64,000 nt of DNA. It comes from an uncultured Bacteroidales bacterium. Its GTDB lineage: Bacteria; Bacteroidota; Bacteroidia; Bacteroidales; UBA3824. Under the pieces are notes generated by a model. The model was not told the origin of the DNA, did no database searches, and saw only the letters and a program-made list of their open reading frames with translations. This document shows, one piece after another, positions 9,070 through 61,937 of the stretch. How positions within the stretch are numbered: the stretch's first letter is position 1; every line of letters starts with the position of its first letter. The position numbers and the translations under genes are program-made. Location of the stretch: assembly GCA_937877455.1 (NCBI GenBank), contig CALFIU010000189.1, forward strand, positions 28,852 through 92,851, written 5' to 3'.

Positions 9070-9450
9070 TTATATTGCGATTGCTTTTTCTGCCTGTTCT
9101 TTATTAAAGAAAACACGCTCTCTTAATCCTTTTTCGCTCGCTAAAACTAAATCTGGAGTTGGCGTATTAAAACGATTTGCGTTCAAATTTCGGCTGAAAC
9201 AATATGATTTTCTTGTCTTGATTGTTATTTTATAAAGGCGCATTTCTTCTATATATGGAAGATATTTATCGCCGTTATGATACATGACTACGAAATAATT
9301 GTTACCAACAATAATTAAATCATCTATTCCTTCTTGAACAATATCTATTGCTTCTAATATTCCCGCAATATAACCTTCTTTCCATTCTTTAGTTTTTCCG
9401 AGAGGATTGATTAGTAGTTTTCTGTTAAGTTTATCTATAGCTTCTCTCAT
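9070..9450 (-). CDS. Hypothetical protein
   Basis: Co-oriented ORF, 4-nt overlap with dut. Confidence 0.45.
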   Translation of the reverse strand: MREAIDKLNRKLLINPLGKTKEWKEGYIAGILEAIDIVQEGIDDLIIVGNNYFVVMYHNGDKYLPYIEEMRLYKITIKTRKSYCFSRNLNANRFNTPTPDLVLASEKGLRERVFFNKEQAEKAIAI

Positions 9451-25023: not shown

Positions 25024-25965
25024 TTAATGCGCATATTCGTCTGCTTCATGCAAAGCAACAACTTCATTAAATACTTTATCGCCAAGCTGTATCTTTAATC
25101 TCTTTTCGACACTCTTGCTCATCTTCCATTCACGATAAGGATGCATATGGAAATAAATCAAAGTCGCAACATGGATAATATCATCAACATGATAATCCAT
25201 ATTGTAAAGATAAAAGATTGAGTCATAAGCTCCTACACAATGATGTTGATAGTAATGGCAATTTCCATCTCTTTCACCTTTAGAATTTACAGCAGTCATT
25301 GTGAATATCTTTCCTTCATCGTGCAAAAGCGCCGCCAAATGAAGCAACTCATTTTTGGGATATTTCTCAAGGATATATTTTCCTGCTTTTCTACAATGCT
25401 CGCCAAGCGTTAAACTATGATGATGATTTCCCTGATCCATATAATCAATGCCTGTTGCGTGGTTATAAAGTGTTGCTAATGTATAATCGGCAAAATCTTC
25501 TCTCTGGCAACTAAACATGATATCTACATCATCCCATCCTTCAGTTTTGTGCGGAGGCTGAAAATTCATGTACATGCGCTTGATTACACTATCAGGAACT
25601 TTTCTTTCCCTTTTCTGATTATTAAGCAAACACACATAGTATGGTGCTACAACTAAAACACACGATTTATGGCAAGGAATATTTTTAAGTTCCTGAAGAA
25701 ACCCCATGCGCCTTTTTCTATTGAGATTTGTGGCATCGTAAATGACATCTTTACCATTCCTTAAATCTTCTTTGATGCGCCTATGTAATTCAGTGAAAAG
25801 CTGCGCGTTTGCTTCTTTTGAATTTTCATTTACATCACCAAACATTTCTTCACGAAGATCATCAGAAGAATGAAGCTGATAATATTTACTCAACGTTCTT
25901 GCATATGTAGACTTACCACTTCCGGGCAAACCTACAAGCATCATTAAAGTTGGTATATTGTTCAT
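25024..25965 (-). CDS. Polynucleotide kinase (P-loop) fused to an HD phosphohydrolase domain
   Basis: N-terminus LVGLPGSGKST...YDATNL (T4 Pnk / AAA_33-like kinase). C-terminus HHHS...LLHDEGK (HD). Confidence 0.75.
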   Translation of the reverse strand: MNNIPTLMMLVGLPGSGKSTYARTLSKYYQLHSSDDLREEMFGDVNENSKEANAQLFTELHRRIKEDLRNGKDVIYDATNLNRKRRMGFLQELKNIPCHKSCVLVVAPYYVCLLNNQKRERKVPDSVIKRMYMNFQPPHKTEGWDDVDIMFSCQREDFADYTLATLYNHATGIDYMDQGNHHHSLTLGEHCRKAGKYILEKYPKNELLHLAALLHDEGKIFTMTAVNSKGERDGNCHYYQHHCVGAYDSIFYLYNMDYHVDDIIHVATLIYFHMHPYREWKMSKSVEKRLKIQLGDKVFNEVVALHEADEYAH

Positions 25966-27332
25966 ATGGCATCCTCCACGATCAATTCTTCCGCTTCTTC
26001 CATGTCTGGCATGTCAGATGTATCTTTGATAATTCCTTCAAGACATTTAAAACTGAAGTTTTTATGTTTGTAAGCTGTAAAACTCGGTCTGTTATCAATT
26101 CTGATAACAACGCCTTCGCGAACATGTGTCTTACCAATCGGGTCTGCGCCATCATAGTATTTTTCGACACGCGCCATAAGATCATCCCATGTAGTAAAGA
26201 TAAACTTTTCAAATGTAGGAACACACTTAGCGCCCATCTTTTCGGCTTCAATTTGTACCTGTTCCCAAGGAAGTTCAACCATAATGCCATCTTCATTCAT
26301 CATTATCATGCGATAAACATATGCATCATTTTCTCCGACTTCACATCCGTAAGAGAACACGGTTTCTTTCCCGTACTGCTTCTGGAAATCTTTATCTTTC
26401 ACGAGCTTATTTGAACATTTGCCCATGATAGTCTGATTTCCTTCTGTATAGCCAACGACCTCATAGAACACTTCGCATCCTTTAGGAAGTTTGTCTTTGA
26501 AGAAATCATGATATTTCTGTCTGAATTTGTTACTTCCGTAGTAGCCACCGTCATACTCGCGCAATGTGGTTCTTCTTGTGCCAGTGATGTATTGATACTT
26601 TCTTGTCTGTTTATCGCGAAGTTTAAACAGTTTTTTCAGAATTGGGTTTCTTCTCTTCTTTGTAATCTGAAGTGTGTTGGCTGTCCTCTGGCTCGTGCCA
26701 TGCATCTTTAATGTGATGTAGCACGTATCGCCTTCTCTAAATGCGTTCTGATTAAATGCAAGCTGCTGTGTATCAATATGCTCAACGAATAAAGGATAAC
26801 TAACCGTTTCTTTTAATTCTTTCTTGTTTACCTTGTACTTGCTACCGCCAGAAGAATTGTTTCTCTTTCTCTTCGGAATATACTTTCTGCAAATCTCGTG
26901 ACCGTCAATTACAGAAATCATATCGCCATCTCTCAGTGTAGTTACATCGACATACTTTGAAAGCGTTTCAATCGGTAAAACTAATCCGTCAGACTTTTCG
27001 CCACGAAGTTTTAATGCCGTGATATTTCTTTTCTCGGCATCCATGTATCCACCGACATTTATAACATCAACGCCATCTTTCTGAATAATTTGCTTTCCTT
27101 CAATCTGTGCATCGTCAAGTTCGGAAACAGGAACGTATTTCTTGACAAGATTATTGTCTGTTGCAAATTCTTCACTCAGCTGCCCATCGACAGGGAAATA
27201 AATAACGCGCTGTCCTTCATGATAATTCAAATCAACAATAACATTATTCCCAAACACGCTCGTTGTGAGGAGTCTGTCTGCATTCGAGTGTTTATGTAAT
27301 TCCTTTAACGTAGTGACATATGCGAAATACAT
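25962..27332 (-). CDS. RNA ligase, DRB0094/DraRnl-like (N-terminal OB domain plus adenylyltransferase)
   Basis: N-terminus HSNADRLLTTSVFGNNVIV (OB module). Motif I is ITLKMHGTS (KxHG, as in the Rnl2/Rnl5 clade). Confidence 0.75.
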   Translation of the reverse strand: MYFAYVTTLKELHKHSNADRLLTTSVFGNNVIVDLNYHEGQRVIYFPVDGQLSEEFATDNNLVKKYVPVSELDDAQIEGKQIIQKDGVDVINVGGYMDAEKRNITALKLRGEKSDGLVLPIETLSKYVDVTTLRDGDMISVIDGHEICRKYIPKRKRNNSSGGSKYKVNKKELKETVSYPLFVEHIDTQQLAFNQNAFREGDTCYITLKMHGTSQRTANTLQITKKRRNPILKKLFKLRDKQTRKYQYITGTRRTTLREYDGGYYGSNKFRQKYHDFFKDKLPKGCEVFYEVVGYTEGNQTIMGKCSNKLVKDKDFQKQYGKETVFSYGCEVGENDAYVYRMIMMNEDGIMVELPWEQVQIEAEKMGAKCVPTFEKFIFTTWDDLMARVEKYYDGADPIGKTHVREGVVIRIDNRPSFTAYKHKNFSFKCLEGIIKDTSDMPDMEEAEELIVEDAI

Positions 27333-34348: not shown

Positions 34349-34414
34349 TTATCTTGCATTATCTATTATACCAAACATAAGATAGCTTGTCAATTACTAT
34401 CTTGTATTATTTCT
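34349..34414 (-). promoter_or_regulatory. Motif-bracketed promoter: AATAATACAAGATAG-N3-TTGACA-N17-TATAAT-N7-GCAAGATAA
   Basis: The minus strand reads GAAATAATACAAGATAGTAATTGACAAGCTATCTTATGTTTGGTATAATAGATAATGCAAGATAA. Confidence 0.7.
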
Positions 34415-35697
34415 TGATCTTCTTTCAGTTCTTGCGCCCAAGTTACAAGCCATTTATTTTTATTCTTGAATGGATCTCTCATCACTTCATCCAAAAGTAA
34501 ATGAAGTACATCGCCGATTTCCTTGCTTGGTTCATATCCAATTTCTATCAAATCATCGCCAGAAATATCCAACTTATCCAAGCTACAACAATCATTATTG
34601 CCGATAATGATTCCTGCGTCAACCTTCATCTGATTTATAAGTTTTAAAAACTTGAATTTATTGATTGGACTTGCGACCGTTGCTTTCGCCATCCAGTAAT
34701 CACACAGATTTTTCGTGTTTCTAAAACCTATCTCACTAATCAGTTTTCGTACTTCATATTTACGATCATCATACTTGAAGCTGATATGTTTATAATCTTC
34801 TTTATGCTTTAGAATATCGCAAATAAGTTTACTTCTTTGGTTATCCATGCGCATATCAGTCAAGATTTCTTTTGGATTATCCGTAAACTGTAGCAACAAT
34901 GCCATTCTTACAGCAAGTTCATCATCTTTATTTGTCGCCATCAAAGACTCGATAACTTCATGATGTTCAAATAAAGTTCCTGCGTTTTTCACGCTATCGT
35001 TAAAATATGGAGTAATACAGTAGAATAAATCAAGGCAATTATAAAGTGTCCTAAATGCACTCGGAAACTGTGTACTCATTATCTTACATGTTTCGGCGCA
35101 AATTCTTTCTTTGGATATGTTGCCAAGCAATTCACGATTATATTGCATAGACCAGAGAGTTTGATTTTCAATTCTAAATCCAAGTGTAATCGCAAATCTT
35201 AACCCACGCATTATGCGCAATCCATCTTCTTTAAACCTATCATCTGGATTACCAACGCACCGAATAACACCGTCTTGAATATCTTCTAATCCGTGGAATA
35301 AATCAACGATGCCTACATCTGGATTATACGCCATAGCATTGATCGTGAAGTCGCGCCTCTTCAAATCTTCTTCGAGTCTGTCAGTGAAATTTACGTCATC
35401 AGGATGCCGACCATCGCTATACGTTCCGTCTATTCTAAATGTCGTGATTTCATATGGTTTATCTTCTATCACTACAGTGACAGTACCATGTTTAATCCCT
35501 GTTTCAACTACTTTGTAATCCTGAAAAACTTTTTCTACAACTTCAGGTAATAATGCTGTGCATATATCCCAATCGTCAGGCTCTTTTCCGAGTATGTAAT
35601 CGCGAACGCAGCCACCAACCACATAGCCAATACTACCGTAGTCATTCAGTTTTTCTAATATAAATTCTACATTTTCAGGAAGGTGTATAATTCCCAT
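34390..35697 (-). CDS. cca: tRNA nucleotidyltransferase (CCA-adding enzyme / poly(A) polymerase family)
   Basis: Head-domain motif VGGCVRDYILG...DWDI and RDFTINA. Confidence 0.85.
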   Translation of the reverse strand: MGIIHLPENVEFILEKLNDYGSIGYVVGGCVRDYILGKEPDDWDICTALLPEVVEKVFQDYKVVETGIKHGTVTVVIEDKPYEITTFRIDGTYSDGRHPDDVNFTDRLEEDLKRRDFTINAMAYNPDVGIVDLFHGLEDIQDGVIRCVGNPDDRFKEDGLRIMRGLRFAITLGFRIENQTLWSMQYNRELLGNISKERICAETCKIMSTQFPSAFRTLYNCLDLFYCITPYFNDSVKNAGTLFEHHEVIESLMATNKDDELAVRMALLLQFTDNPKEILTDMRMDNQRSKLICDILKHKEDYKHISFKYDDRKYEVRKLISEIGFRNTKNLCDYWMAKATVASPINKFKFLKLINQMKVDAGIIIGNNDCCSLDKLDISGDDLIEIGYEPSKEIGDVLHLLLDEVMRDPFKNKNKWLVTWAQELKEDQEIIQDSN

Positions 35698-36721
35698 TTA
35701 ACACACTCCAATTCGCATCTGCGAGAAACTTGTTAATTCTATCGTAATCTGGATTAGGCGGTAAATCAGTATGTTCTTTTAAGTAATTCATTTTTGCTTC
35801 TAACTCATCTACCATTTCATAAAATTCTTTCGTTGGTTGTCTGTTATCATCAAGATACTTTCCGTTCCTGATATCCATAAGAAAATCGTGATCTTTAGCA
35901 CGATAAGTAATAATTTCACCACGCTCAAGAATATCGAAACACATCAAATAAAGTCGAACCAAATGCATCATGTGCTTTGATAATTTGTCGTGTTCTATAG
36001 CATGTTGATTGCGCTTTCCAAGTTTTGAATAATCCTTGACAATATTATTCATCTCAGACCACATGCATTTATAATCACGAAGCGGATAATGCTTTAATGA
36101 CACATCCATAAAAATTTCTGTATCATAGTCCTCTTGTTCTGACTTATCAATATACAGTCTAATTGCGTCCTCTGGATAATTGAAGTATTTTTCTGGATAA
36201 GAATATCGTGTGTTTTCAATACTTCCAAGAATATGTTCTTCACGTTTTGATTGTTCAACAAGTCTAACCGCCTTGTTATCGAGCCTTCGCGCTTGGGAAA
36301 CCGCATAACCTCCGAAAGAATGAACCGCCCTTTTTGAAAGAAACATATCCCTGTTATCAATCAACGCCTGACCAATATCGGAAACATACAAATACTGCCA
36401 CGGTTCTAATCCAAGGATCTCAATCGTATTGGGATTACAATTCGATAGCAAATTGATAATCTTTTCAAGAGAATATACCGTTGTATCAGTAGCTTCATTA
36501 ACAACCTGATCGAAACCTTTTCTTGTCAGAATATCTACTGCCGAATGTGTAGCGATTCCACGCACATCAAGATCGCTATTCTCGTTATTCGTGCCATATG
36601 CATGACTGCCGCCCAATCCAAGAAGAATAATATTCTCGCCTAACGGCTTTTCTCTCAGGAAACTATATTCATCCGATTCTACTTTGCGCTTAATCTCATC
36701 AATCGTCATACTTGTATTCAC
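35675..36721 (-). CDS. Pol-beta-fold nucleotidyltransferase, RlaP-like (RNA-repair-pathway family)
   Basis: LGLGGSHAYGTNNENSDLDVRG is an NTase motif, with a long helical C-terminus (recalled PF10127 pattern). Confidence 0.6.
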   Translation of the reverse strand: MNTSMTIDEIKRKVESDEYSFLREKPLGENIILLGLGGSHAYGTNNENSDLDVRGIATHSAVDILTRKGFDQVVNEATDTTVYSLEKIINLLSNCNPNTIEILGLEPWQYLYVSDIGQALIDNRDMFLSKRAVHSFGGYAVSQARRLDNKAVRLVEQSKREEHILGSIENTRYSYPEKYFNYPEDAIRLYIDKSEQEDYDTEIFMDVSLKHYPLRDYKCMWSEMNNIVKDYSKLGKRNQHAIEHDKLSKHMMHLVRLYLMCFDILERGEIITYRAKDHDFLMDIRNGKYLDDNRQPTKEFYEMVDELEAKMNYLKEHTDLPPNPDYDRINKFLADANWSVLNGNYTPS

Positions 36722-41185: not shown

Positions 41186-41986
41186 TCACACATTTTCTAA
41201 ACTCTTAAATGTTTCATATACATTGATTATATTTTCGTAGATTAGTAAGTTTGATTGAAGTTTATCTTTTTCTTTGTCGTCAAATGTAGTACAAATTGAA
41301 GTTTTTATTTCTTCTATTTTTTCTTTTATATATTTTTTAAACATATCCTCTAAATCATCCCTCAATTGTGTTCTATTCTTTAAAGCAACGGATACAAACT
41401 GATATATTTTTGTGCTTTCACTAATAGAACCACCGTGTTGACCACATTTTGTTAGTGTATCAAGATTATCAAATATCGGTATTTTAATTCCATGAACATT
41501 TCGTAAAATATCTGTTGCTTCTTTTATTATATTAATTGGTATTAACCAACCTGAATCTTTATTTGTTCTATAGTCATATATATATGAAAGAAACATTCTA
41601 TAATCCGAAATATCAGGGCTATTTTTATGGCATTGTTCGCATATTAAAAATAAGTTTTCAGGCTTATCTTCTCCTCCAAGCATTTTAGGTTTAATATGCG
41701 CTCTATTTAAGTAGTGTTTTGATGTTTTCGAATCCCAAATTCTTTTTAAACCTTTATCTGAATTGTCTGAAATCCACTCATCATATTTCTCTTCTTTTTC
41801 TACTGGAATTACTTTTCTACAACACCAACATTCTGGCTCGCCCCAATCAGTAACCACTTCAATAGTCTTGTCATAATATTCTGGAATATTAGGGTATACA
41901 TTTCCGAATTTATCTATGCATTTATCCTTCCAATAATCAAATATTTTTGAGTGTGGTATCGTAGTACCAGATTTATAATCGCTCAT
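41186..41986 (-). CDS. HNH endonuclease domain protein
   Basis: Contains CWCCRK ... NRAHIKPKMLGGEDKPENLFLICEQCH. Confidence 0.65.
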   Translation of the reverse strand: MSDYKSGTTIPHSKIFDYWKDKCIDKFGNVYPNIPEYYDKTIEVVTDWGEPECWCCRKVIPVEKEEKYDEWISDNSDKGLKRIWDSKTSKHYLNRAHIKPKMLGGEDKPENLFLICEQCHKNSPDISDYRMFLSYIYDYRTNKDSGWLIPINIIKEATDILRNVHGIKIPIFDNLDTLTKCGQHGGSISESTKIYQFVSVALKNRTQLRDDLEDMFKKYIKEKIEEIKTSICTTFDDKEKDKLQSNLLIYENIINVYETFKSLENV

Positions 41987-42047
41987 AAAGTCCTTTCTAC
42001 TTTTTTTATGCGCCGCGCCAAAACACGGCTCAATGAATTATTCTGCA

Positions 42048-43314
42048 TTATTTATTGATTGTTAAATATTTTTGTGTTTTTTCGTTGCCATACTCTTTTT
42101 CATACTTGTCATAATTCGGAATATACATTTTCGTGTTCCCATGCATATTTATGTATTGCATCACAAACCAATATCCAAGACCTTTATTTGACGGTTTCCA
42201 CAAACCATTTTCATCAAATGCGCCGCCTCTTAAAATGTAATCCTGAATCTTCGGATTTGATAATTCTTCAATTAGTTCTAACCGATTAGGACGTTTTTCT
42301 AAATGCAGTCCGAACCCACACATGCAGCATCCAGTCCTTGAACATCCTGTTGTTTTTAAGCATGGTCTATCTAATTCAAATATTCCTTTATCCTCATATC
42401 CCACAACGTCAAATTTAGAACCATCATCGGCTACAATATCACCATATACGGGGCATAATTTTATATCATGTAGAAGTGCATACAAAAGAATATCTTGCTC
42501 AAACCAGAATGACATCGGATTACTGATGGGATTTTTAGCATCAAACATATTACATCCGTGTTGAAGCCATTTCTGCGTTCTAAGCCTACTTTCACTTGCC
42601 ATTTGTGCAGTGATACCTTTTCTTCCTGTCTGCTTCGTATATGTGTGCATTGGTGATTTTTTCATTACATTGCAACACTTATTTGATATTTCAAAAGGAG
42701 CTTCAAGTAAAAACTGCCATTTTACTTGCGTAAATTGTGACTTATCTTTTTCAGGGATATTCGCCTTTATCTGTTGATCCTTCGTCAGCATCCCCAACAT
42801 TTGAGCGAGTCTCTGATTGTTGCCTCCTTTGTGGTTTTTCATTCTGTAATTTAGTATATTCGCCAATTCCTCGGAGTTTGCGATATTTGTTATCGTACCC
42901 CCCCTCGACATTGAAATCAGGCATTGTCTCTTCTTCTATCAGCTTTGTCAAATATTTTCTTGCACCAGATACACATTCCGATACTTCTTTTGATACGAAT
43001 GGATAACCATATTTTTCTATCGTTTGTTTAAATCCCATTTTAGGTTTAATCCAATCAACGTTATCAAAAGTCTTTACAAAACTTCTAATCTCTGGATATT
43101 CCAAACCAGTATCAGAATAGACTGCTTTAATATTTGGATACATTTCTCGTGCAATATGTAAAAGAACCGTACTGTCTTTGCCTCCACTGAACGAAACAAA
43201 CACACCATCTTCTCCATATTCATTTACCCATTGTCTAATTCTGTTCTGCGTCATGCGAACTTTTATATCAAGAGGTAATGCTTGCATTTGTTGTAAGTCT
43301 TGCCGTGTTCTCAT
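42048..43314 (-). pseudogene. PAPS-reductase/DndC-like PP-loop enzyme, split by a frameshift at a G7 tract
   Basis: The upstream ORF has the FSGGKDS PP-loop and the downstream ORF has the Cys-rich C-terminus (CSRTGCCMCG). The two frames overlap, and removing one G at 42898-42904 gives ...FNVEGGTITNIANSEE... Confidence 0.75.
42898..42904 (-). repeat. G7 homopolymer at the PAPS-reductase-like frame junction
   Basis: C7 on the plus strand. Confidence 0.95.
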
Positions 43315-44119
43315 ATATTTTTATTTTAACCTCACTATGATTCTTAATTTTCGAACAAATTTTTTGCAACGCTTCTTTGTCCGACATATAAAAATGATCT
43401 TCGCCTAATATATTTACAACAGCCTGACCAAATCTAATCATCGGATACTGACTATGATAATCAAGCATCGCCTGAACGATGTTATCAAAATCATCTTCCT
43501 CTACTGCGTCACGGCTATACTTTGCCTTTGGATTGTAATGATCGACAATGTATTGTAATGTTCTCGGCGCATAATCTATGTACGGATACATGCATCCAAC
43601 GTTATAAATCTCGCACGGAAATCCTTGACGATTTAACATAGCGGTGAGCCTACGTTCCATCTCGCTCTCAGCCGAATTGTGCGAATGACCATGAAGCATA
43701 ATAGCATTTCTGTAATGGTGGTTGTAAAATGGTATATAATAATGCGATAAAATTACTCTTTTATTAGCACCATTTACTTCATCATTGACCTCTTTATATG
43801 GAACAACTTCCTCGAATAGTTTTTTAAAACGATCATTTACAAATTTGTCGTGATTGCCAAGTATAAGATGCTTATTTCCATTCAGATTATTCAATAGTTC
43901 TTTGTAATAATCGAAATTCTGGTTGCTTACTTTCCACGCTATATCACCAAGGCAATACACATGATCTGCATTGGTTACGACAGCATTCCATTTCTTAGTT
44001 ATAGTATCATGCATTTCATCCAAATCTTTGAAACCACGATTATCAAAATCTTTTCCTGCTTTAGTCACGTTTATATGCCCTAAATGCAAGTCAGAAATAT
44101 ATAGTTTACGTTCACCCAT
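43268..44119 (-). CDS. Calcineurin-like metallophosphoesterase
   Basis: Motifs DLHLGH, GDIAW, GNHD and GHSH. Confidence 0.75.
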   Translation of the reverse strand: MGERKLYISDLHLGHINVTKAGKDFDNRGFKDLDEMHDTITKKWNAVVTNADHVYCLGDIAWKVSNQNFDYYKELLNNLNGNKHLILGNHDKFVNDRFKKLFEEVVPYKEVNDEVNGANKRVILSHYYIPFYNHHYRNAIMLHGHSHNSAESEMERRLTAMLNRQGFPCEIYNVGCMYPYIDYAPRTLQYIVDHYNPKAKYSRDAVEEDDFDNIVQAMLDYHSQYPMIRFGQAVVNILGEDHFYMSDKEALQKICSKIKNHSEVKIKIYENTARLTTNASITS

Positions 44120-44453
44120 TCATGTCTACCATCCCATGTGTATATTGATTCCAAACATAGTCTATAAAGATGTCCCAATTTAATCTAACTTGACTAAACA
44201 CATCGACCTTCTCTTTTTTAAACTTCTTGCTTTCAGGAAAATCTGAAAGAATAATCTCCCATTCACATTTTGACCAGAAGTAATACATCAATTCTGCGTA
44301 AACATCTTTTTCGAATTTTTCAAAATTATTTTTACACTCAATCCACGCTTTGTCGCATCCTTTTTTAAAACTTGCGTGATCGAAAATGTTATAGATTTCT
44401 ATTCGTCTACGGTTTATACTATCGACATAGACATTCCATTTTAATTCCTTCAT
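44112..44453 (-). CDS. Hypothetical protein
   Basis: Co-oriented ORF. Confidence 0.45.
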   Translation of the reverse strand: MKELKWNVYVDSINRRRIEIYNIFDHASFKKGCDKAWIECKNNFEKFEKDVYAELMYYFWSKCEWEIILSDFPESKKFKKEKVDVFSQVRLNWDIFIDYVWNQYTHGMVDMNG

Positions 44454-44701
44454 ATATCACCAACAAAACTTAATTGTTCAAGCTGTACATTATTGTTATC
44501 GTGTTTTCTTGTATTATTTCTTGGTTGGTATTTGCGACCTGTTACAACATCGCCCAAATCTGACATTACAAAATTCTTACAATGGGTTTCTCTTTTGATC
44601 TGTTCTTCAGTCCAATGTGGCTGTTTGCCTTTTGGATGATTACTACATCTATAATCGTCAGCTTCGAAACAGAACGCGCAATATCTGCAATATTGTTTCA
44701 T
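44450..44701 (-). CDS. Small Cys-rich protein
   Basis: Contains CRYCAFCFEADDYRC. Confidence 0.4.
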   Translation of the reverse strand: MKQYCRYCAFCFEADDYRCSNHPKGKQPHWTEEQIKRETHCKNFVMSDLGDVVTGRKYQPRNNTRKHDNNNVQLEQLSFVGDI

Positions 44702-44718
44702 TTTTCAAAACCCCGATT

Positions 44719-45477
44719 TTATGCTATCTGGATTATCTGTTCATATAAAAGAATGAATTTTCCCATGATTTGTTTATTATCATGATAATGCGCGAAAAAC
44801 CACTTGTTAAACTTCAACCCATCCCATAACAACTCATTAAAATACCATGTTAGTTTATCTCTATCAGTGAAACCAATTACAGAAGATACTTCTTGTGGCG
44901 CACAATGGCTAATCACAAAATCAACTTCATTATTCACGGCTTTCAATGATTGTCGCCCACGCTCCATTTCTTCATCGCTCGGCATTTCCTGTTCCCACCA
45001 TGAAACGCCTTTAACCCTGAAGAATGCTCCACGTTTTCTAAGACTTTCATATACGTTTCTGAACTCACCCGGACGATCAATATAATCATCGGGGTCTAAA
45101 ATGCCATCTTGAATGTCGTGTGAACTTGCGCCACCAAACGCAAAAAACTTTTTATCGCAAATATCAAATACATAGCCACGCATTAAATGATAGATATTAT
45201 CTGCTATCTTGTGCGCCTTGCCACCGTGAAAATCTACGACAGGATATGTATATAACAAATCAAAATTTTCGTGATTACCATCAATAAAAACTGTTGTGAA
45301 TGGTTTATCGTTTAGCCATTTCAACCAATACTTTTCCTCTTTTGAGTGCGACCATACCAGACCAAAATCTCCCAAGATAATAACGCAATCATCTTGCGTC
45401 ATTTCTTTTTGTTCTGGAAAATTATCAACACTGAATCGGCGCGGATCTCCATGTATATCACCTGTCACGAAAATCAT
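44719..45477 (-). CDS. Metallophosphoesterase (lambda-type Ser/Thr phosphatase-like)
   Basis: Motifs GDIHGD, LGDFG and GNHENF. Confidence 0.75.
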   Translation of the reverse strand: MIFVTGDIHGDPRRFSVDNFPEQKEMTQDDCVIILGDFGLVWSHSKEEKYWLKWLNDKPFTTVFIDGNHENFDLLYTYPVVDFHGGKAHKIADNIYHLMRGYVFDICDKKFFAFGGASSHDIQDGILDPDDYIDRPGEFRNVYESLRKRGAFFRVKGVSWWEQEMPSDEEMERGRQSLKAVNNEVDFVISHCAPQEVSSVIGFTDRDKLTWYFNELLWDGLKFNKWFFAHYHDNKQIMGKFILLYEQIIQIA

Positions 45478-46100
45478 TCATCATACCTCTCTAATTTCTG
45501 TTCTTTTGTTTGCAATATAAACGATCTGTAATTTTCATAATCTGCGAATGTAATATACTTACCATTGATTACATCGAAACAGTTTTCATTTCTTGCTAAT
45601 TCATATCCATTCGCGCTGATTATAAAGTAAACATCTTTATTCTCTTCTGTTTCTATAACCAATGGAATAAGACTTTCTTTTATATCAATTACATTGTCAA
45701 TACTTAATCCGCTGTCAATAGCATCAAACAAGAACCATAGTTCTTTAGCATCTGGATTTTCCTGTGACATGCGCCCCATTTTTCTGGCTATATTTTCAAG
45801 AACGTTTACAATGTTTTCGCCTTCGCTACTCATCATTGTTCTTGCTACGATATCAAAACTTCCATAAAACGCAGCCTTACTTCTTAACTCTCTCTCGCCA
45901 TTCTGCATATTGCTATGAAACAGCACAGGAATATCTTTGTTTTTCAAACTTTGATTTATTTGCTTGAGCATCGTTGTTTTTCCTGCACCATTACATCCGA
46001 CAAGAACGGTTAATCCGGGGTTTATCTTTATCTGTTTCTTTTTGAAGATGGCGCAATCATCACCATACCAGTCATTAGATAATCTAAACTGTCTGCTCAT
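45474..46100 (-). CDS. Compact ABC-type ATPase
   Basis: Walker A GCNGAGKTT, signature-like SSEGE, and Walker B LFDAIDSG. Confidence 0.6.
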   Translation of the reverse strand: MSRQFRLSNDWYGDDCAIFKKKQIKINPGLTVLVGCNGAGKTTMLKQINQSLKNKDIPVLFHSNMQNGERELRSKAAFYGSFDIVARTMMSSEGENIVNVLENIARKMGRMSQENPDAKELWFLFDAIDSGLSIDNVIDIKESLIPLVIETEENKDVYFIISANGYELARNENCFDVINGKYITFADYENYRSFILQTKEQKLERYDE

Positions 46101-46552
46101 ACCAATATACCATCAAGAATACTGCTTACAAGTTTGCCATCTGCTTTACCTTTAACCTTCGGCATAAGCTCTTTCATAATGATACCTTTACTTTTCTTTG
46201 TTGCTGGATTATCAGAAGTAAAGCCAAGAGATAACATGACCTCTTCAATAACGGCTCTGATCTGTGTTTCATCCATCAATTCAGGAGCAAACTTCTTTAG
46301 TATTTCTATCCTTCTCTTGCATTGTTCGATAATATCCGTCCTATCTTCGGGACACATGTCTAACGTTTCCTGTGTCTGTCTGATTTCCTTATAGACAACA
46401 GCATTCTCTTCATCTTCCGTAAGCTCACGTTGTTTATCAATTTCCGCATTCTTTAACGCAGAAAGAAGCAATGAAAGCGTATCTTTTGTTTCTTGGTCAT
46501 GAGCTTTCATTGCGTCAATCATGCACATTCTTACATAATCTTCTTTCTTCAT
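46097..46552 (-). CDS. GatB/YqeY-domain protein
   Basis: AMKAHDQETKDTLSLLLSALKNAEI ... KGKADGKLVSSIL matches the YqeY pattern. Confidence 0.8.
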   Translation of the reverse strand: MKKEDYVRMCMIDAMKAHDQETKDTLSLLLSALKNAEIDKQRELTEDEENAVVYKEIRQTQETLDMCPEDRTDIIEQCKRRIEILKKFAPELMDETQIRAVIEEVMLSLGFTSDNPATKKSKGIIMKELMPKVKGKADGKLVSSILDGILV

Positions 46553-48233: not shown

Positions 48234-49004
48234 TTATATGGTGTTCCATTCATAGTCTGATATTCTTTTTATTTCAGAAGAATGATATGGCAAGTTATAT
48301 GATTTGCACCATTTTCTTATAGAATTGTCACTAACACCATAATTTTTCCCAATTTGTAAAAATGAATGATGTCTAATCATGTGCTTTAAGACATCTCTTT
48401 CTGGCTTTTTGCTTATGGCACTATATCTCTTTTTAACTTCACACGATTTACATCTTTTTGCATGTCTACTTATTTCTTTTCCACAATCGGCACAATAATT
48501 TTTAGAATCAATTTTATTTCCTATATGACTATCATGATTCGTAACGACATGTTCATATTTTCTTTTTGCACGACCACGATAGTTATCTGTTAACGCGTGG
48601 CAATTTGGACACAAAACCTTTAAGTTGCTCAAATTATTATTAAAATGATTTCCGTCTACATGATGGAGTTCAAGAGGAATCTGAACACCTTGCCAATATT
48701 CTAAACCGCAATTTTCACATTTCATATTTTTGATACCTTCTTTAATCAATCTATTTTTTAATGAAAGTGATTTAATTGGTTTTTCGTTATTCAAGAAAAT
48801 TTCAATTGGCAATTGTTTCCTATTACAACTATAACCTTTATGTGATTTATTTCCTTCATAATTAATACCAAGCACATTTAAATACTTGTTTAATGTCGTT
48901 GATTTACATGAAAGCTCTCTGCAAATATATTGTTTAGACCTATTTTCTGAAATCCATTTTAAAATATCATCTTTTCTTTCTAATATATCCTTTCTTTGTT
49001 TCAT
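48234..49004 (-). CDS. HNH homing endonuclease embedded in the tRNA array
   Basis: CENCG...LELHHVDGNHFNNNLSNLKVLCPNCH plus C-terminal HTH-like repeats. Its stop codon abuts the tRNA-Leu(TAA) 5' end. Confidence 0.8.
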   Translation of the reverse strand: MKQRKDILERKDDILKWISENRSKQYICRELSCKSTTLNKYLNVLGINYEGNKSHKGYSCNRKQLPIEIFLNNEKPIKSLSLKNRLIKEGIKNMKCENCGLEYWQGVQIPLELHHVDGNHFNNNLSNLKVLCPNCHALTDNYRGRAKRKYEHVVTNHDSHIGNKIDSKNYCADCGKEISRHAKRCKSCEVKKRYSAISKKPERDVLKHMIRHHSFLQIGKNYGVSDNSIRKWCKSYNLPYHSSEIKRISDYEWNTI

Positions 49005-49194: not shown

Positions 49195-49320
49195 CGGCGA
49201 GGACAGGACTCGAACCTGCGACCTACGGCGTTTAAGGCATAATATTAAAATTGCTGTGTGTATCTTAACAAGATACGTTGTTTGTTTTTACGTTGCTCTA
49301 ACCGACTGGGCTACCTCGCC
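49195..49320 (-). tRNA. tRNA body (Asn-like GTT stem-loop) with extra sequence on both sides of the anticodon hairpin
   Basis: Has the GGCGAGG/CCTCGCC acceptor, U8A9, D arm GCCC-AGTCGGTTA-GAGC and T arm GCAGG-TTCGAGT-CCTGT. The centre is A/C-rich linker, then GTATC-TTGTTAA-GATAC, then ACACAGCAAU plus 26 nt. Confidence 0.6.
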
Positions 49321-50987: not shown

Positions 50988-51053
50988 CAAGGCACTGGTT
51001 TTGGTTGTAAGATTAAAAGTCTTATCCATAATTGTGGTTGCTGTATGTGCCTT
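50988..51053 (-). ncRNA. T-arm-less mini tRNA-like RNA displaying a Lys(UUU) anticodon stem-loop (ACAGCAA-box family)
   Basis: Reads AAGGCAC-AU-ACAGCAACCACAATTATGGA-[TAAGA-CTTTTAA-TCTTA]-CAACCAAAACCA-GTGCCTT-G. Confidence 0.6.
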
Positions 51054-51061
51054 AAATATAT

Positions 51062-51178
51062 AGCGCACGATTGGATTCGAACCAATGACACGATTTTTTG
51101 TTTGTTTAATTGCTGATTGCGATTATCACTAACCACGTTTAACAAGTTAAATTGCACTACCAACTGTGCTACGTGCGC
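51062..51178 (-). tRNA. tRNA body with ~50-nt insertion in the anticodon loop region
   Basis: Has the GCGCACG/CGTGCGC acceptor, U8A9, D arm GCAC-AGTTGGTA-GTGC and T arm ATTGG-TTCGAAT-CCAAT. The insert carries AU-CAGCAAU. Confidence 0.6.
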
Positions 51179-51193
51179 CATCCCTTTCGGGAA

Positions 51194-51349
51194 AAGCAGC
51201 GACAGGAATCGAACCTATGACTGCGGCTTGCCTCGGTAAATTTGCTGTATGTTTCTTTAATTCCCCAACTCTAACTCGTCTGTGCGGTTACTCTTGGTGG
51301 TAACAAGAAACATTTTTATGCCGCCGTGATCCCACTTCACTACGCCACT
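51194..51349 (-). tRNA. tRNA body with ~85-nt insertion inside the anticodon loop
   Basis: Reads AGTGGCG-UA-GTGA-AGTGGGA-TCAC-G-GCGGC[92 nt]GCCGC-AGTC-ATAGG-TTCGATT-CCTGT-CGCTGCT-T. The insert holds the GTTTCTT...AAGAAAC helix and AU-ACAGCAA. Confidence 0.7.
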
Positions 51350-51352
51350 TCG

Positions 51353-51476
51353 CCCATCGTGAAGGATTCGAACCTTCCCCTCAAGTTTTCCAGACTTGTA
51401 ATTGATATGTAATATTGCTGCAAGCGCTTCACTAAACGCACAATCAAAAGATGTGCTACCGCTACACCAACGATGG
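51353..51476 (-). tRNA. tRNA body with ~53-nt insertion between the D arm and the anticodon arm
   Basis: Has the CCATCGT/ACGATGG acceptor, D arm GTGT-AGCGGTA-GCAC, anticodon arm CAAGT-CTGGAAA-ACTTG and T arm GAAGG-TTCGAAT-CCTTC. The insert holds the hairpin GCGTTT-AGTG-AAGCGC followed by UU-GCAGCAAU. Confidence 0.6.
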
Positions 51477-51491
51477 GATATTTAATTTTTA

Positions 51492-51558
51492 CAAGACACT
51501 GAAATGGTAATATAAGTTAACAGCTTATTCCTCTTTCATTTATTGCTGTTTGTGTCTT
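51492..51558 (-). ncRNA. T-arm-less mini tRNA-like RNA displaying an Asn(GUU) anticodon stem-loop (ACAGCAA-box family)
   Basis: Reads AAGACAC-AA-ACAGCAATAAATGAAAGAGGA-[ATAAG-CTGTTAA-CTTAT]-ATTACCATTTCA-GTGTCTT-G. Confidence 0.6.
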
Positions 51559-51666: not shown

Positions 51667-51732
51667 TTATCTTGCAATACCTATTATAGCATGCCGTTTA
51701 TGGTTTTGCAAGTGTTATTTTGTATTATTTCT
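51667..51732 (-). promoter_or_regulatory. Motif-bracketed promoter inside the RNA array: AATAATACAAAATAA-N3-TTGCAA-N17-TATAAT-N7-GCAAGATAA
   Basis: The minus strand reads GAAATAATACAAAATAACACTTGCAAAACCATAAACGGCATGCTATAATAGGTATTGCAAGATAA. Confidence 0.7.
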
Positions 51733-51765
51733 AATACTTTTTGAATGTCAACAACAACGGCAACG

Positions 51766-51838
51766 TGCGCCAGATGGGATTTGAACCCATGACTTTTCGA
51801 TTAAAAGTCGAATACTCTACCATCTGAGTTACTGGCGC
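51766..51838 (-). tRNA. tRNA-Lys (anticodon TTT)
   Basis: GCGCCAG/CTGGCGC acceptor, D arm ACTC-AGATGGTA-GAGT, anticodon arm TTCGA-CTTTTAA-TCGAA, and T arm ATGGG-TTCAAAT-CCCAT. Confidence 0.9.
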
Positions 51839-52095: not shown

Positions 52096-52470
52096 TTAAT
52101 CACAGTACCCTGTTATAAGCTCGATCCCATATTTATTAAGAACCTTTTCAACTGCATCCCAATAGTATCTTCCACAATCTTCGTTATCTATAACGAATAC
52201 GTTCTCATATTTCTTATCATTTGTATTAACAGTCCAATAACACACTTCGTAAGGTTCATCTACATATTCTTTAATTCTGAAGTGACCGATTCCGTCGCCG
52301 CTAACATCAGACCAGTCATATTCATCATAATCGTCATCGCGCCAATGTTTAGCTTCTTCGTTCGCCATTTCCAGAAGAATATCGAGTAACCGTCCGTGTG
52401 TCACTTTATCTCTGGAAATAATGAAACTACTTGAGCTACTATTCGTCACAAAATCTTTTCTAATTTTCAT
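52096..52470 (-). CDS. Ser-tract family paralog C (start reassigned to MKIRKDFVTNSSSSSF)
   Basis: Shares the invariant N-terminus with 53096-53563 and 53560-53991. Confidence 0.55.
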   Translation of the reverse strand: MKIRKDFVTNSSSSSFIISRDKVTHGRLLDILLEMANEEAKHWRDDDYDEYDWSDVSGDGIGHFRIKEYVDEPYEVCYWTVNTNDKKYENVFVIDNEDCGRYYWDAVEKVLNKYGIELITGYCD

Positions 52471-53083
52471 TCTTTTCCACCATAGTATCAATAATATAAT
52501 AAAACGATTGATATATAAGTATCCCCCCAATAGCATTAAATAAAATATTTAACAGTAAATATCTAAGTACATTCAAATTGAATAATCCAGCAACAGAAAA
52601 ATAAAACACGTTTGCTATGCAATGTTCAAATCCGCAAAATACGAAGATAGAAGTTGCCATCCATAGAATAATTGTTCTAAATATATGCGAAACATTCTCG
52701 TTCTTAAATGTATCAACGGCAATAAAGAGCAAGACATTACACATAATAGCAAGAGGAATAATTTCCCATCCCTCGGTGAGTTTGCTTCTGCAAATTTCCA
52801 TCGCACTAACAATTAGTGTTGGCTTGGCATATCCGAAAACAATTCCCATAAGTGTTGCACCAACAATATTTCCAAAAAGAATTAAAATCAATTTTGGTAT
52901 GCCAGATATCCCGGCGATATATGGCGCTTTTCCTGTAAACAAATTTAAATGATACGCGCAAACAATCAGTAATCCTATAGGGAATAATAAAGCTTGTTTA
53001 GTACACAGGTAAGCTATTGCTCCGATAGATATTGCCACTCCTGCCCATATAGAACTTATAAATATTTCTAGTTTATCTTTCAT
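52460..53083 (-). CDS. Formate/nitrite transporter (FNT)-like membrane protein
   Basis: Six hydrophobic segments. CGFEHCIANVFYF resembles the FNT signature GFEHSIANM. Confidence 0.5.
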   Translation of the reverse strand: MKDKLEIFISSIWAGVAISIGAIAYLCTKQALLFPIGLLIVCAYHLNLFTGKAPYIAGISGIPKLILILFGNIVGATLMGIVFGYAKPTLIVSAMEICRSKLTEGWEIIPLAIMCNVLLFIAVDTFKNENVSHIFRTIILWMATSIFVFCGFEHCIANVFYFSVAGLFNLNVLRYLLLNILFNAIGGILIYQSFYYIIDTMVEKNEN

Positions 53084-56087: not shown

Positions 56088-56396
56088 TTAGTAAAACATA
56101 GGATTGTCTTTACACAGCTTTCCGTTCTGCGCCCAAATCAAATATTTCATAGCATGATAACAATCTATAGCATGGCAAATAAGTAAATCCGTGTTTGTTT
56201 CAACCATGAACTTATCTTTATTATCTTGAAGATAAGCACTTAATTCTTTATCGTCCACTCTCCAACAAATACAAGCATACAAAGCATCAAATAGATTCCC
56301 ATCTTCTTCGCAATTCATTCTTCCAGAAAACTCATGCATCCATTTGTTTAATTTATTTTTTACATCATCATTAAAAAATGAAATCATTTTAATCAA
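56088..56396 (-). CDS. Hypothetical protein
   Basis: Co-oriented ORF. Confidence 0.45.
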   Translation of the reverse strand: MIKMISFFNDDVKNKLNKWMHEFSGRMNCEEDGNLFDALYACICWRVDDKELSAYLQDNKDKFMVETNTDLLICHAIDCYHAMKYLIWAQNGKLCKDNPMFY

Positions 56397-57069
56397 CCAC
56401 CCTATAATATAAAGTATTACCTCTTGTTTTCCACGCCATTGCTACTCTATAGTTTAACATTTTTTTATCGCTTCTATTGCTATAAAATATACCGCGTGGT
56501 TCATCTGGTTTATTTGTCTCTTCTGGTCTGTTTTTAATATAAAAATCAAATCGTAAACTATCATTTACAGTATAAAGTCTTTTTCTGCAAATCATTTTTC
56601 CATCAATGTCAAACGCAAGACTGTAATAATTTATTGACTTACCATCTTTATATTCATCAAGAATTTGGTTAAAACTTTTTGGATTGTCTTTATCAAAATT
56701 ATATAAATTCTTGCACTGTTCAAGATTAGTTTCTAAAGATATATAGCTCTCTCTATTTATATTGAGTTTCTTCCAATGCAAATCACCGTCTAAACTTGGA
56801 AGTATTACACAATCGGATTTTTTATACGCTTTATTATATTTTGGTTGGTATGTATTAATCATTACTTCTTCAAACTTATTCATGTCAGATTCTTTATTAA
56901 AATCAACATAATAAATATCGGATAATGACAATTCATACCATCCATCTTCACATATATTATCTCCACTTTTAAGATGTTGGTTAATTCTATCTTCAATATC
57001 TTGAATTGTTTTCCCGACATATAAAATAGAATTATCTATTCCAAGAACATATTTATATATCCTATACAT
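56389..57069 (-). CDS. GIY-YIG nuclease domain protein
   Basis: N-terminus IYKYV...ILYVGKT...R..QH. Confidence 0.6.
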   Translation of the reverse strand: MYRIYKYVLGIDNSILYVGKTIQDIEDRINQHLKSGDNICEDGWYELSLSDIYYVDFNKESDMNKFEEVMINTYQPKYNKAYKKSDCVILPSLDGDLHWKKLNINRESYISLETNLEQCKNLYNFDKDNPKSFNQILDEYKDGKSINYYSLAFDIDGKMICRKRLYTVNDSLRFDFYIKNRPEETNKPDEPRGIFYSNRSDKKMLNYRVAMAWKTRGNTLYYRVVD

Positions 57070-61637: not shown

Positions 61638-61937
61638 TTATGAAATGATAGCCATGCACCCGAATCCACTGTCATATGTAGGCGTTTTTCCTTTAATTAA
61701 GTGGACGATCTTTTCTTCCGCGATCCTCTTGCATTCTGGATGCACCATCTTCTCTTCTTTCACATATTCATCTCGCTCATTTGAAGTGTCAAACACAAGA
61801 ACGGTATTTGTTCCATGATACAGCGCATAAAATTTTCTTCCCATTTGTGATACTCCTTTTAAAATTTGATGTATGCGCGAAATTCCATCCGAACGAACAT
61901 GTTTATAGTAAATAAATTTTCCGCATTTAACAATCAT
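61638..61937 (-). CDS. Hypothetical protein
   Basis: Co-oriented ORF. Confidence 0.45.
   Translation of the reverse strand: MIVKCGKFIYYKHVRSDGISRIHQILKGVSQMGRKFYALYHGTNTVLVFDTSNERDEYVKEEKMVHPECKRIAEEKIVHLIKGKTPTYDSGFGCMAIIS

Follow-up and report, generated by a model that had tools for sequence, protein, structure and literature searches.

The YrlA-type Y RNAs of bacteria and phages (RF02553; PMC4201824), which are partners of Ro60/Rsr, are small RNAs encoded beside the gene for a Ro60-fold protein, on the same strand and often with several copies per locus. Their 5′ and 3′ ends come together in a stem that carries a conserved motif on its 5′ strand, and this stem is joined to an effector module that mimics tRNA. 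Thermus phage phiLo encodes a Ro60 protein together with two such RNAs, Yrl1 and Yrl2 (PMC12135203), and two reports conjecture that Y RNAs accompany phage Ro-like proteins, with none identified in either (PMC11482910; PMC12282133). We have analyzed a 64,000-nucleotide (nt) stretch of phage DNA (the window; contig CALFIU010000189.1 of assembly GCA_937877455.1, positions 28,852 to 92,851) in which a gene whose product is predicted to have a Ro60 fold is accompanied by an array of tRNAs and small RNAs. Two of these RNAs, elements F and B, consist of a constant structural module, which we call the handle, joined to a variable cargo that mimics the anticodon arm of tRNA-Lys(UUU) or tRNA-Asn(GUU), respectively. 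The architecture of these RNAs and the family to which they belong are firmly established, and this family is considerably larger than was seen in an earlier reading of the window made from its letters alone (the sequence-only reading).

A constant handle on two RNAs that mimic anticodon arms

Element F (51053-50988, minus strand) is a 66-nt RNA (7+22+5+7+5+12+7+1) that reads AAGGCAC-AU-ACAGCAACCACAAUUAUGGA-UAAGA-CUUUUAA-UCUUA-CAACCAAAACCA-GUGCCUU-G. Its ends form a terminal helix of 7 base pairs (bp), termed P1 (51053-51047 with 50995-50989), that is followed by the spacer AU, the heptamer ACAGCAA (51044-51038) and then CCACAAUUAUGGA, which leads into the UAAGA strand of the anticodon-arm mimic. 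This mimic comprises a 5-bp stem (51024-51020 with 51012-51008) and the loop CUUUUAA (51019-51013), which carries the Lys anticodon UUU, and a single unpaired G (50988) follows the 3′ strand of P1. In addition, a short helix of 3 bp (P2, UGG/CCA) closes a single-nucleotide bulge, which mimics position 26 of tRNA, and a 3-nt strand, which mimics the variable loop. When F is folded as a single sequence, P1 and the anticodon-like hairpin both form in the minimum-energy structure (-13.6 kcal/mol, z = -3.17), and none of 200 shuffled sequences folds as well. For comparison, the phage also encodes a normal tRNA-Lys(UUU) (51765-51838, minus strand), called by ARAGORN and Rfam, whose anticodon arm is UUCGA-CUUUUAA-UCGAA.

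Element B (51558-51492, minus strand; 67 nt) shares this arrangement and reads AAGACAC-AA-ACAGCAAUAAAUGAAAGAGGA-AUAAG-CUGUUAA-CUUAU-AUUACCAUUUCA-GUGUCUU-G. Specifically, P1 (51558-51552 with 51499-51493; 7 bp) is followed by the spacer AA, the heptamer ACAGCAA (51549-51543) and UAAAUGAAAGAGGA, after which the AUAAG strand begins an anticodon-arm mimic (stem 51528-51524 with 51516-51512) whose loop CUGUUAA (51523-51517) carries the Asn anticodon GUU. Again, an unpaired G (51492) forms the 3′ end. Just two G-C pairs are possible in B at the place where F has P2. Orthologues of B in related loci (each designated by L and a number) keep the loop CUGUUAA on stems that differ in sequence (L002 3588-3648, L128 6409, L203 8603 and L130 5905).

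Neither RNA is called by ARAGORN or by the Rfam tRNA model, and both lack a T arm and a D stem, such that the anticodon arm and the 7-bp terminal helix are the only parts of the RF00005 cloverleaf present. The sequence-only reading had described F and B as members of one family of mini tRNAs that lack a T arm and present perfect Lys(UUU) and Asn(GUU) anticodon stem-loops. All lengths that it gave for the two RNAs are correct base for base on the minus strand, and its claims regarding the missing T arm, the faithful anticodon stem-loops and the common family are borne out. Furthermore, the hairpin loops, whose conservation in homologous phages it had made the measure of its own claim, are indeed conserved. 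What does not hold up as well is the description of these RNAs as mini tRNAs, for the terminal helix, the ACAGCAA sequence and the 3′ G form a constant module that is unchanged when the anticodon changes. Because this handle does not vary with the anticodon, and either forms the termini of an RNA or is inserted as a closed hairpin in a tRNA-like RNA, it is best viewed as a module in its own right rather than as an acceptor stem, and it probably behaves as a protein-binding handle comparable to the Ro-binding stem of Y RNAs.

In the handle consensus, the helix is 7 bp long and its G3:C, C5:G and C7:G pairs are conserved. It is followed by two spacer bases and an invariant single-stranded (A)CAGCAA sequence, and an unpaired G comes after the 3′ strand. 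A megablast search with the region against 50,697 phage records yields no match, and relatives were reached via the neighboring protein. The first three, found in IMG/VR, have proteins with 53-75% identity and the same elements next to the gene, and the terminal helices of these close relatives covary perfectly (AAGUCGC/GCGACUU, AAGGCGG/CCGCCUU, GAGACAC/GUGUCUC and UAAGCAC/GUGCUUA). We then assembled 83 loci, of which 80 were seeded with a protein profile that is blind to RNA and the others are L002, L003 and the window. These loci contain 244 complete elements on the strand of the gene versus 3 on the opposite strand, and the ACAGCAA sequence by itself is found 522 times on the gene strand versus 71 times on the other. 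At least one element is present in 74 of the 83 protein-seeded loci. Although a G was not required after the 3′ strand, 81% of the candidates have one there. Similarly, an independent set of 80 contigs from bacterial genomes and metagenome-assembled genomes (MAGs) in GTDB yields 99 elements on the gene strand and 3 on the opposite strand.

A covariance model built from 38 small members gives scores of 64.6 bits for F, which is itself in the training set, and 60.6 bits for B. In the window it also recovers three elements on which it was not trained, namely A, H and G, with expectation values (E) from 2e-7 to 2e-5, all on the minus strand. Its reach extends to the Felix O1-like phage wV8, the Listeria phages P100plus and cka15, and the Enterococcus phage VRE9_2. 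In wV8, four elements directly follow the gene, whereas in the Listeria phages three elements precede the gene by 60-340 nt and lie behind a promoter of the form TTGACA-17-TATCAT. Phage VRE9_2 carries four well-formed elements, and we regard a fifth regular-expression match, at 13794, as doubtful. In mycobacteriophage Wigglewiggle, three elements immediately follow a gene annotated as 'Ro-like RNA binding protein'. Across these phages ACAGCAA is constant, whereas the first bases of the helix vary among the distant clades: AAGRC in the window, AGACC in wV8, AGGAA in the Listeria phages and UGGNC in the mycobacteriophage. A separate scan of IMG/VR with the DNA pattern ACAGCAA-N(6-24)-ACTTTTAAT returns matches that by rough estimate are mostly due to chance and are biased toward Lys; these were used only after filtering for the full architecture, and not for frequencies.

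Cargo, neighboring protein and surrounding array

The range of cargo was assessed in 166 small members, all distinct and no longer than 80 nt, from the protein-seeded set. A CU-NNN-AA loop on a stem of at least 5 bp is present in 43 of these, whereas across 200 dinucleotide shuffles the expected number is 0.36 and the highest is 2. The most common loop is CUUUUAA (Lys; 17 members), followed by CUUGAAA (Ser UGA; 10), CUGUUAA (Asn; 6), CUGCUAA (Ser GCU; 3), CUGCAAA (Cys; 3), CUGAUAA (Ile; 2), and CUGGUAA and CUUGUAA (Thr; 1 each). Several members carry UUUGGGU and its relatives, which correspond to Pro UGG and have G37 as in genuine tRNA-Pro. In related phages the stems beneath these loops vary by compensatory changes, both for Lys (UAAGA/UCUUA, AUAGA/UCUAU, AUCAA/UUGAU and UUUCA/UGAAA) and for Asn (AUAAG/CUUAU, AUAGU/ACUAU and UCAUA/UAUGA). 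In the 38-member alignment, double changes are observed in all seven pairs of the terminal helix and all five pairs of the hairpin, but because pairing was a criterion for selecting these members, the strand and shuffle controls carry more weight.

The resemblance to tRNA extends beyond the loop. In many members an extra helix of 3-5 bp flanks the arm (UGG/CCA in F; elsewhere AGG/CCU, ACG/CGU, UGC/GCA and AGC/GCU). One base is left unpaired 5′ of the arm and three or four are left 3′ of it, the same spacing that position 26 and the variable loop have in tRNA. This flanking helix with tRNA-like spacers occurs in 25 of 60 members, as opposed to 6.3 in controls. Larger members are circularly permuted tRNA-like RNAs in which the order is handle, anticodon arm, variable region, T arm, an acceptor stem closed by a tetraloop, D arm, and handle (L099 3436-3550, L005, wV8 (L204) 9362-9488 and Wigglewiggle (L288) 4027-4150). 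Intermediate members carry a T arm, either with or without an anticodon arm. A D-loop-like GG(A/U)(A/U)A sequence is found in 20 of 29 members that have a T arm versus 15% of the others, and this co-occurrence suggests the formation of a tRNA-like elbow. Together, these features identify the cargo as genuine tRNA mimicry. Some intermediates of 82-103 nt (L139 5817-5898; L203 5259-5347) have a handle, a D-loop-like GGUUAA, an anticodon arm (e.g. loop CUCAUAA, anticodon CAU) and a T arm, with neither a D stem nor a separate acceptor, and thus resemble cloverleaves in which the handle helix takes the place of the acceptor stem.

The presumed partner of the handle is the 499-amino-acid product of the gene at 50947-49448 (minus strand), whose start codon lies 40 nt downstream of the 3′ end of F. 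In Pfam this protein matches DUF2828 and DUF7788, with a weak match to VWA_2, and falls outside TROVE; in PHROGs it belongs to phrog_850, 'RNA-binding protein'. A phmmer search against PDB sequences returns no match. Its structure as modeled by AlphaFold2 with 19 homologues (moderate quality, with a predicted local distance difference test score of 75) consists of a HEAT-repeat ring and a vWA domain. When this model is compared with the PDB by Foldseek, the top nine matches are all Ro60 structures that align over the full length (E 1e-8 to 2e-5, TM-score about 0.5), including those of Thermus phage phiLo (9KOP, E 1.4e-8; 9L5Y), Xenopus Ro (1YVR, 2I91 and 1YVP) and Ro60 determined by cryo-electron microscopy (9NEP and 9NFA). 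The protein is therefore predicted to have a Ro60 fold, yet to belong to a sequence family other than TROVE, and the Ro60-like neighbor named in the sequence-only reading is upheld by this structural comparison. The DUF2828 family is present in at least 711 phage records, which include Felix O1-like, P100/A511-like, staphylococcal, campylobacter, vibrio and mycobacterial phages.

The handle motif occurs nine times in the window, always on the minus strand between 47.4 and 51.7 kb. Eight copies match CA(U/A)ACAGCAA or near variants thereof (47468, 49251, 49423, 51038, 51110, 51242, 51543 and 51646), and the ninth is the variant GCAGCAA within element C. Five copies (A, B, F, G and H) are free-standing, such that the 7 nt located two bases 5′ of ACAGCAA pair perfectly with a downstream strand that is followed by G. 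Among these, element A (51661-51571; 91 nt) has the handle AAGGCAC-AU-ACAGCAA ... GUGCCUU-G, a T-arm mimic GAUGG-UUCAAGU-CCAUC and a D-loop-like GGAUAAAG (38.3 bits, E 2e-7), and element H (47483-47390; 94 nt), located between tRNA-Ile and tRNA-Leu, has AAGGCGC-AU-ACAGCAA ... GCGCCUU-G (35.0 bits, E 2e-6). Element G (49438-49387; 52 nt) has UAAGCGC-CA-ACAGCAA ... GCGCUUA-G and no canonical anticodon loop (31.1 bits, E 2e-5).

The remaining four copies reside within tRNA-like RNAs (three at 51062-51477, one at 49195-49320) that have normal acceptor, D and T arms, but whose anticodon region is replaced or interrupted by an insertion of 46-100 nt with a closed handle and (A/U/G)CAGCAA. In each, a local hairpin substitutes for the terminal helix, and the base equivalent to that following the 3′ strand of the helix is G in three of them and A in element C. 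Element C (51477-51352) is a complete tRNA-like RNA (acceptor CCCAUCG/CGAUGGG, D arm, hairpin CAAGU-CUGGAAA-ACUUG and T arm; partial Rfam tRNA match of 25 bits at 51353-51418) with the closed handle hairpin GCGUUU-AGUG-AAGCGC-UU-GCAGCAA inserted between the D arm and the anticodon arm. The orthologue of C in L002 shows compensatory changes in the handle hairpin; the canonical hairpin CAAGU-CUGGAAA-ACUUG is retained in C but not in this orthologue. Element D (51349-51194) is the top half of a tRNA-like RNA (acceptor AGUGGCG/CGCUGCU, D arm, stem GCGGC/GCCGC and T arm) in which about 100 nt that contain GUUUCUU ... AAGAAAC-AU-ACAGCAA take the place of the anticodon loop; this structure was parsed by eye, and its acceptor pairing was checked by script. 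Element E (51178-51062) is likewise a tRNA-like top half (Rfam tRNA, 45.8 bits with a 46-nt insertion), and it carries the closed handle GUGGUUA-GUGA-UAAUCGC-AA-UCAGCAA on a stem UUUAA/UUAAA that replaces the anticodon loop. In the L002 orthologue of E, the GNRA loop is kept and one single-sided change converts a U-G wobble to C-G. The fourth RNA (49320-49195; Rfam tRNA, 44.4 bits with a 63-nt insertion) contains GUAUCUU-GUU-AAGAUAC-AC-ACAGCAA, in which one can see a closed handle or, alternatively, a stem of 5 bp that bears the loop UUGUUAA.

Two matches to the sigma-70 promoter consensus (TTGACA-16-AATAAT, and TTGCAA-17-TATAAT with an extended -10 TG) lie just upstream of A at 51683-51751 on the minus strand. 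Elements A through F and the Ro-like gene are on the same strand, and the stretch from A to the gene contains no predicted terminator. Two further covariance-model matches, at 42019-42080 and 61823-61878, are weak and were not accepted as members. The latter (minus strand; 13.5 bits, E 0.5) places GCGCAU-ACAUCAA ... AUGCGC around a Shine-Dalgarno sequence and an ATG (AAAGGAGUAUCACAAAUGG), and could be either an mRNA site for the Ro-like protein or a chance match.

The window is rich in genes for RNA repair. A gene for an RNA ligase (PF09414; 25962-27332) overlaps one for a P-loop kinase (25024-25965), and a gene for a CCA-adding enzyme (34390-35697) overlaps one for an RlaP 'RNA repair pathway' nucleotidyltransferase (35675-36721), all on the minus strand. 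Thus, both the kinase-ligase pair and the tRNA-Lys(UUU) that the sequence-only reading attributed to the phage are in place. Just downstream of the RNA array, a string of overlapping genes (43268-46552, minus strand) encodes a YqeY-like protein, a P-loop NTPase and two calcineurin-type metallophosphoesterases; the last three occupy 43268-46100, and the type of the NTPase is uncertain, as its Pfam matches are of a generic AAA/ABC type. HNH endonuclease genes (48234-49004 and 41186-41986, minus strand) are scattered through the region of the tRNAs and small RNAs, and a GIY-YIG endonuclease gene is located at 56389-57069. These may be homing endonucleases that help to shuffle RNA cassettes between phages. 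Immediately upstream of the tRNA and small-RNA operon is an open reading frame of the formate/nitrite transporter family (52460-53083, minus strand; PF01226, E 3e-21), which is an unusual gene for a phage.

GTDB species genomes contain no close relatives of the Ro-like protein. Relatives with 42-55% identity (loci L208-L287) are found mostly in genomes and MAGs of Lachnospiraceae, Oscillospiraceae and other Clostridia, including complete or isolate genomes, and the window contains a tyrosine integrase gene (4736-5935). Because of this integrase and the distribution of the protein relatives among Clostridia, the data suggest a temperate phage of gut Firmicutes.

Proposed function and competing explanations

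We favor, albeit with some reserve, the interpretation that F and B are Y-RNA-like partners of the phage Ro-like protein that present anticodon arms to proteins that recognize such arms, with host anticodon nucleases as the likeliest clients. In this scheme, the Ro60-fold protein would bind the constant handle, and the resulting RNA-protein particle would display the variable cargo, which is the tRNA-Lys(UUU) arm in F and the tRNA-Asn(GUU) arm in B. The displayed arm would then occupy or trap the nuclease. Genomic linkage makes the identity of the protein partner probable, whereas the decoy action is plausible and stands on less secure ground than the binding partner. More tentative still is a broader proposal, which we consider possible but somewhat doubtful, that many phage lineages combine a Ro60-like protein, a universal handle and swappable anticodon-arm cargos as bait that traps or inactivates host anticodon nucleases.

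Several facts are consistent with the decoy idea, which we regard as a reasonable hypothesis. Cleavage of tRNA is a major anti-phage strategy, employed by PrrC, RloC, PARIS, OLD, Schlafen-like nucleases and Cas13. Specifically, PrrC and RloC act on tRNA-Lys, and colicin E5 acts on Tyr, His, Asn and Asp tRNAs, whose anticodons start with queuosine or G. The AriB nuclease of PARIS cleaves Lys(UUU), Thr(UGU) and Asn(GUU) tRNAs, and all three of these targets occur as cargo (17 Lys, 6 Asn and 2 Thr loops). Element F retains the sequence UAAUC. The mimics have canonical loops, unlike the altered loops of phage tRNAs that escape nucleases, and this feature fits the decoy idea, as does the wealth of RNA-repair genes in the same genome. 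Finally, the Ro60-like protein gp130 of Felixounavirus Bas63, encoded just upstream of tRNA genes, counters the ppl defense (PMC11482910); its standing as a DUF2828 homologue is based on the description in that paper and on the gene arrangement in wV8.

Other observations weigh against this interpretation. Because the link between the handle and the protein is genomic, binding is something that we infer. The linkage was measured mainly from protein to RNA, and among about 27 element-bearing stretches in loci seeded with the RNA pattern, for which only partial flanking DNA is available, the gene is found in 7. Evidence for co-evolution of RNA and protein is confined to differences among distant clades, and the similarity of terminal helices within a genome is no higher than that between genomes of the same clade (0.64 versus 0.61), a comparison that speaks neither for nor against binding by the protein. 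Moreover, the handle motif is unlike every characterized Ro60 site (GGUCCGA, GNCGAA), and so binding by the Ro-like protein is argued by analogy. With regard to cargo, the Ser UGA arm, although second in abundance, and the Pro, Cys and Ser GCU arms are not targets of the best-known anticodon nucleases of phage defense. With regard to structure, RNAalifold recovers the terminal helix from the alignment but not the 5-bp stem, which is AU-rich and thermodynamically marginal, and we retain the anticodon-like stem on the strength of pair counts and shuffle controls. Similarly, the minimum-energy fold of B keeps the terminal helix but pairs ACAGC with GCUGU of the loop (z = -1.07), and because this single-sequence fold does not recover the hairpin, support for the hairpin in B is comparative. 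Lastly, gp130 alone, supplied from a plasmid or from T7, restored plaquing on cells with ppl (PMC11482910), and thus the Ro60-like protein has at least one anti-defense activity that does not depend on phage RNA.

The main competing explanation is that the cargo serves as a tether or adaptor, either recruiting a tRNA-binding enzyme to the Ro-like protein or gating its cavity, for the purpose of tRNA quality control or repair during infection. Such an enzyme might be one that modifies position 34 or 37, the anticodon-binding domain of an aminoacyl-tRNA synthetase, or the phage kinase, ligase or CCA-adding enzyme. The association of Ro60, Y RNA and PNPase offers a precedent that includes the phiLo Ro60 protein with its Yrl RNAs (PMC12135203; PMC4201824). 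Also consistent with this possibility are the faithful copying of position 37 (A37 with NNU and NNA anticodons, G37 with UGG), which is what a modification enzyme would read, and the presence of RNA-repair genes in the same genome, along with an RtcB ligase gene located 1.3 kb from the Ro-like gene in the Listeria phages. However, no candidate client is conserved beside the RNAs across phage groups, and a cargo range that spans Lys, Ser, Asn, Pro, Cys, Ile, Thr and others does not fit the substrates of any single enzyme. We judge a tethering or adaptor role to be rather unlikely.

It is also conceivable that the elements act in cis, as processing or stability signals or as autoregulatory operators of a polycistronic transcript that carries tRNAs and the Ro-like message, rather than as RNAs that function in trans. 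The 40-nt distance from F to the start codon, the apparently terminator-free path from A to the gene, and the weak match that surrounds a ribosome-binding site and start codon at 61823-61878 would all accord with such a role. Yet members are found upstream of the gene, downstream of it, and far from it within tRNA arrays, and handles also occur inside tRNA-like RNAs. Furthermore, tRNA mimicry that is so elaborate and is maintained by purifying selection would be superfluous in a processing signal, and we consider cis action improbable.

Even less credible is the notion that F and B are working minimal tRNAs which, like those of nematode mitochondria that lack D and T arms, would receive CCA, become aminoacylated and decode AAA/AAG and AAU/AAC codons. 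Admittedly, the 7-bp terminal helix, two bases at positions 8-9, canonical anticodon arm and single 3′ base at the discriminator position are all tRNA-like, the phage encodes a CCA-adding enzyme, and members with both an anticodon arm and a T arm (L139 5817-5898) resemble a cloverleaf without its D stem. But Lys, Asn, Ser, Pro, Cys, Ile and Thr members share the helix consensus ARGRCNC and the 3′ G, in contradiction to the rules of tRNA identity, and the same module is attached to tRNA-like bodies with acceptor stems closed by a tetraloop, and interrupts other tRNA-like bodies. In addition, we know of no bacterial translation system that uses armless tRNAs, and the phage already has a normal tRNA-Lys(UUU). 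Last, decaying tRNA-gene remnants or functionless chance hairpins in AT-rich intergenic DNA, as might be suspected from the location in a tRNA array and from the AU-rich, thermodynamically weak stems, can be dismissed because the comparative data already contradict them in the strand asymmetries (244 versus 3, and 99 versus 3), the compensatory changes in every pair, the loops that are invariant across phages whose Ro-like proteins are only 43-75% identical, and the roughly 120-fold excess of CU-NNN-AA hairpins over shuffles.

Regardless of the precise function, the handle, defined by a 7-bp helix, NN, ACAGCAA and a 3′ G, directly identifies candidate RNA partners for the widespread orphan DUF2828 proteins. 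The family also reveals a new form of tRNA mimicry that is split into modules, with some members presenting the complete body of a tRNA and others just the T arm or just the anticodon arm. RNAs that show the very arms targeted by anticodon nucleases provide a hypothesis open to testing in genetically tractable phages, among them Bas63 and Felix O1 of E. coli and P100 and A511 of Listeria. If the decoy mechanism is true, it would be, as far as our literature search shows, the first known RNA-decoy counter-defense against tRNA-targeting immunity, and the tRNAs that are attacked by the hosts of a phage would be reflected in its set of cargos.

Relation to known systems

When the window is searched with Rfam 15 at both gathering and permissive thresholds, the matches are to tRNA, apart from one YrlA match that we reject, and no family fits the handle RNAs. 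The YrlA model finds nothing in F or B at E up to 10, and nothing in 12 related loci. The rejected match (51126-51240; 23.3 bits versus a gathering threshold of 69) arises where the T arm of D meets the D arm of E, and was enabled by a hairpin with a GNRA loop, CCC-GAAA-GGG, located exactly between these two RNAs (51182-51191, minus strand). The literature that we searched does not link DUF2828 to phages or to RNA, and includes no paper with both ACAGCAA and tRNA. The RNA family thus appears to be undescribed as far as Rfam 15 and this literature show.

Listeria phage CKA15 might seem to offer a transcribed example. Its most transcribed unannotated region (26,236-26,727) has been discussed in a 2025 multi-omics study as a possible small interfering RNA or Y RNA (PMC12282133). 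However, this region (L207 2320-2871; about 26,195-26,746 of OR088597.1) matches the Rfam ROOL family (90.1 bits, E 3.5e-17, gathering threshold 99.1), and we reject its identification as handle RNAs. The ROOL-like region is flanked by tRNA-Pro and tRNA-Met and precedes the Ro-like gene by about 1 kb. Mass spectrometry of purified virions detected the Ro-like protein of this phage, CKA15_055 (20 peptides, 57% coverage; PMC12282133), and it is thus possible that this protein, perhaps accompanied by RNA, is delivered along with the phage genome.

Among described RNAs, the closest to the handle family are the Y RNAs of the YrlA type. Like them, handle RNAs are small, often number several per locus and lie beside a Ro60-fold gene on its strand, as F does. 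In addition, the two ends of each RNA pair to form a stem, the 5′ strand of which bears a conserved motif. A module that mimics tRNA is present as well, and the larger members, unlike F and B, even possess the T arm, D arm and loop-closed acceptor stem that make up the tRNA-like domain of YrlA. The differences are equally clear. The handle carries (A)CAGCAA after a 7-bp helix, whereas the motif is GNCGAA(N)G in bacterial YrlA (PMC4201824) and GGUCCGA in animal Y RNAs, and no CGAA motif is present in F or B. The associated protein belongs to DUF2828/DUF7788 rather than TROVE. Moreover, many handle RNAs carry an anticodon stem-loop, and F and B carry nothing else, at the position where YrlA places its Ro-binding stem.

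The phiLo system (PMC12135203; 9KOP, 9L5Y) is similar in that a phage encodes a Ro60-fold protein, in this case the best structural match to the protein of the window, and in that the partner RNAs adjoin the gene. It differs in that the Yrl RNAs were picked by a CGAA motif and a stem-bulge-stem structure, no anticodon-arm cargo is reported for them, and the two proteins are only about 15% identical.

The handle RNAs also invite comparison with the armless mitochondrial tRNAs of nematodes and mites, which are about 50-66 nt in length and likewise have a 7-bp terminal helix and an anticodon arm but no T arm. In handle RNAs, however, an invariant heptamer occupies the place of the D arm and is shared by all 'isoacceptors', and the module is also inserted in other RNAs.

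Finally, some phage tRNAs neutralize host defenses, such as the T5 tRNAs for Lys, Thr and Asn that act against PARIS (PMC12409363; PMC11464382) and the tRNA-Thr that acts against P2 OLD (PMC12445682). These are RNA-level countermeasures that involve the same tRNA species and reside in phage tRNA arrays, as do the RNAs described here. Nevertheless, they are complete and functional tRNAs that replace the cleaved host tRNA, and their anticodon arms are mutated to escape cleavage. In contrast, handle RNAs are not plausibly involved in decoding, and they keep the canonical loops that bait would be expected to retain.

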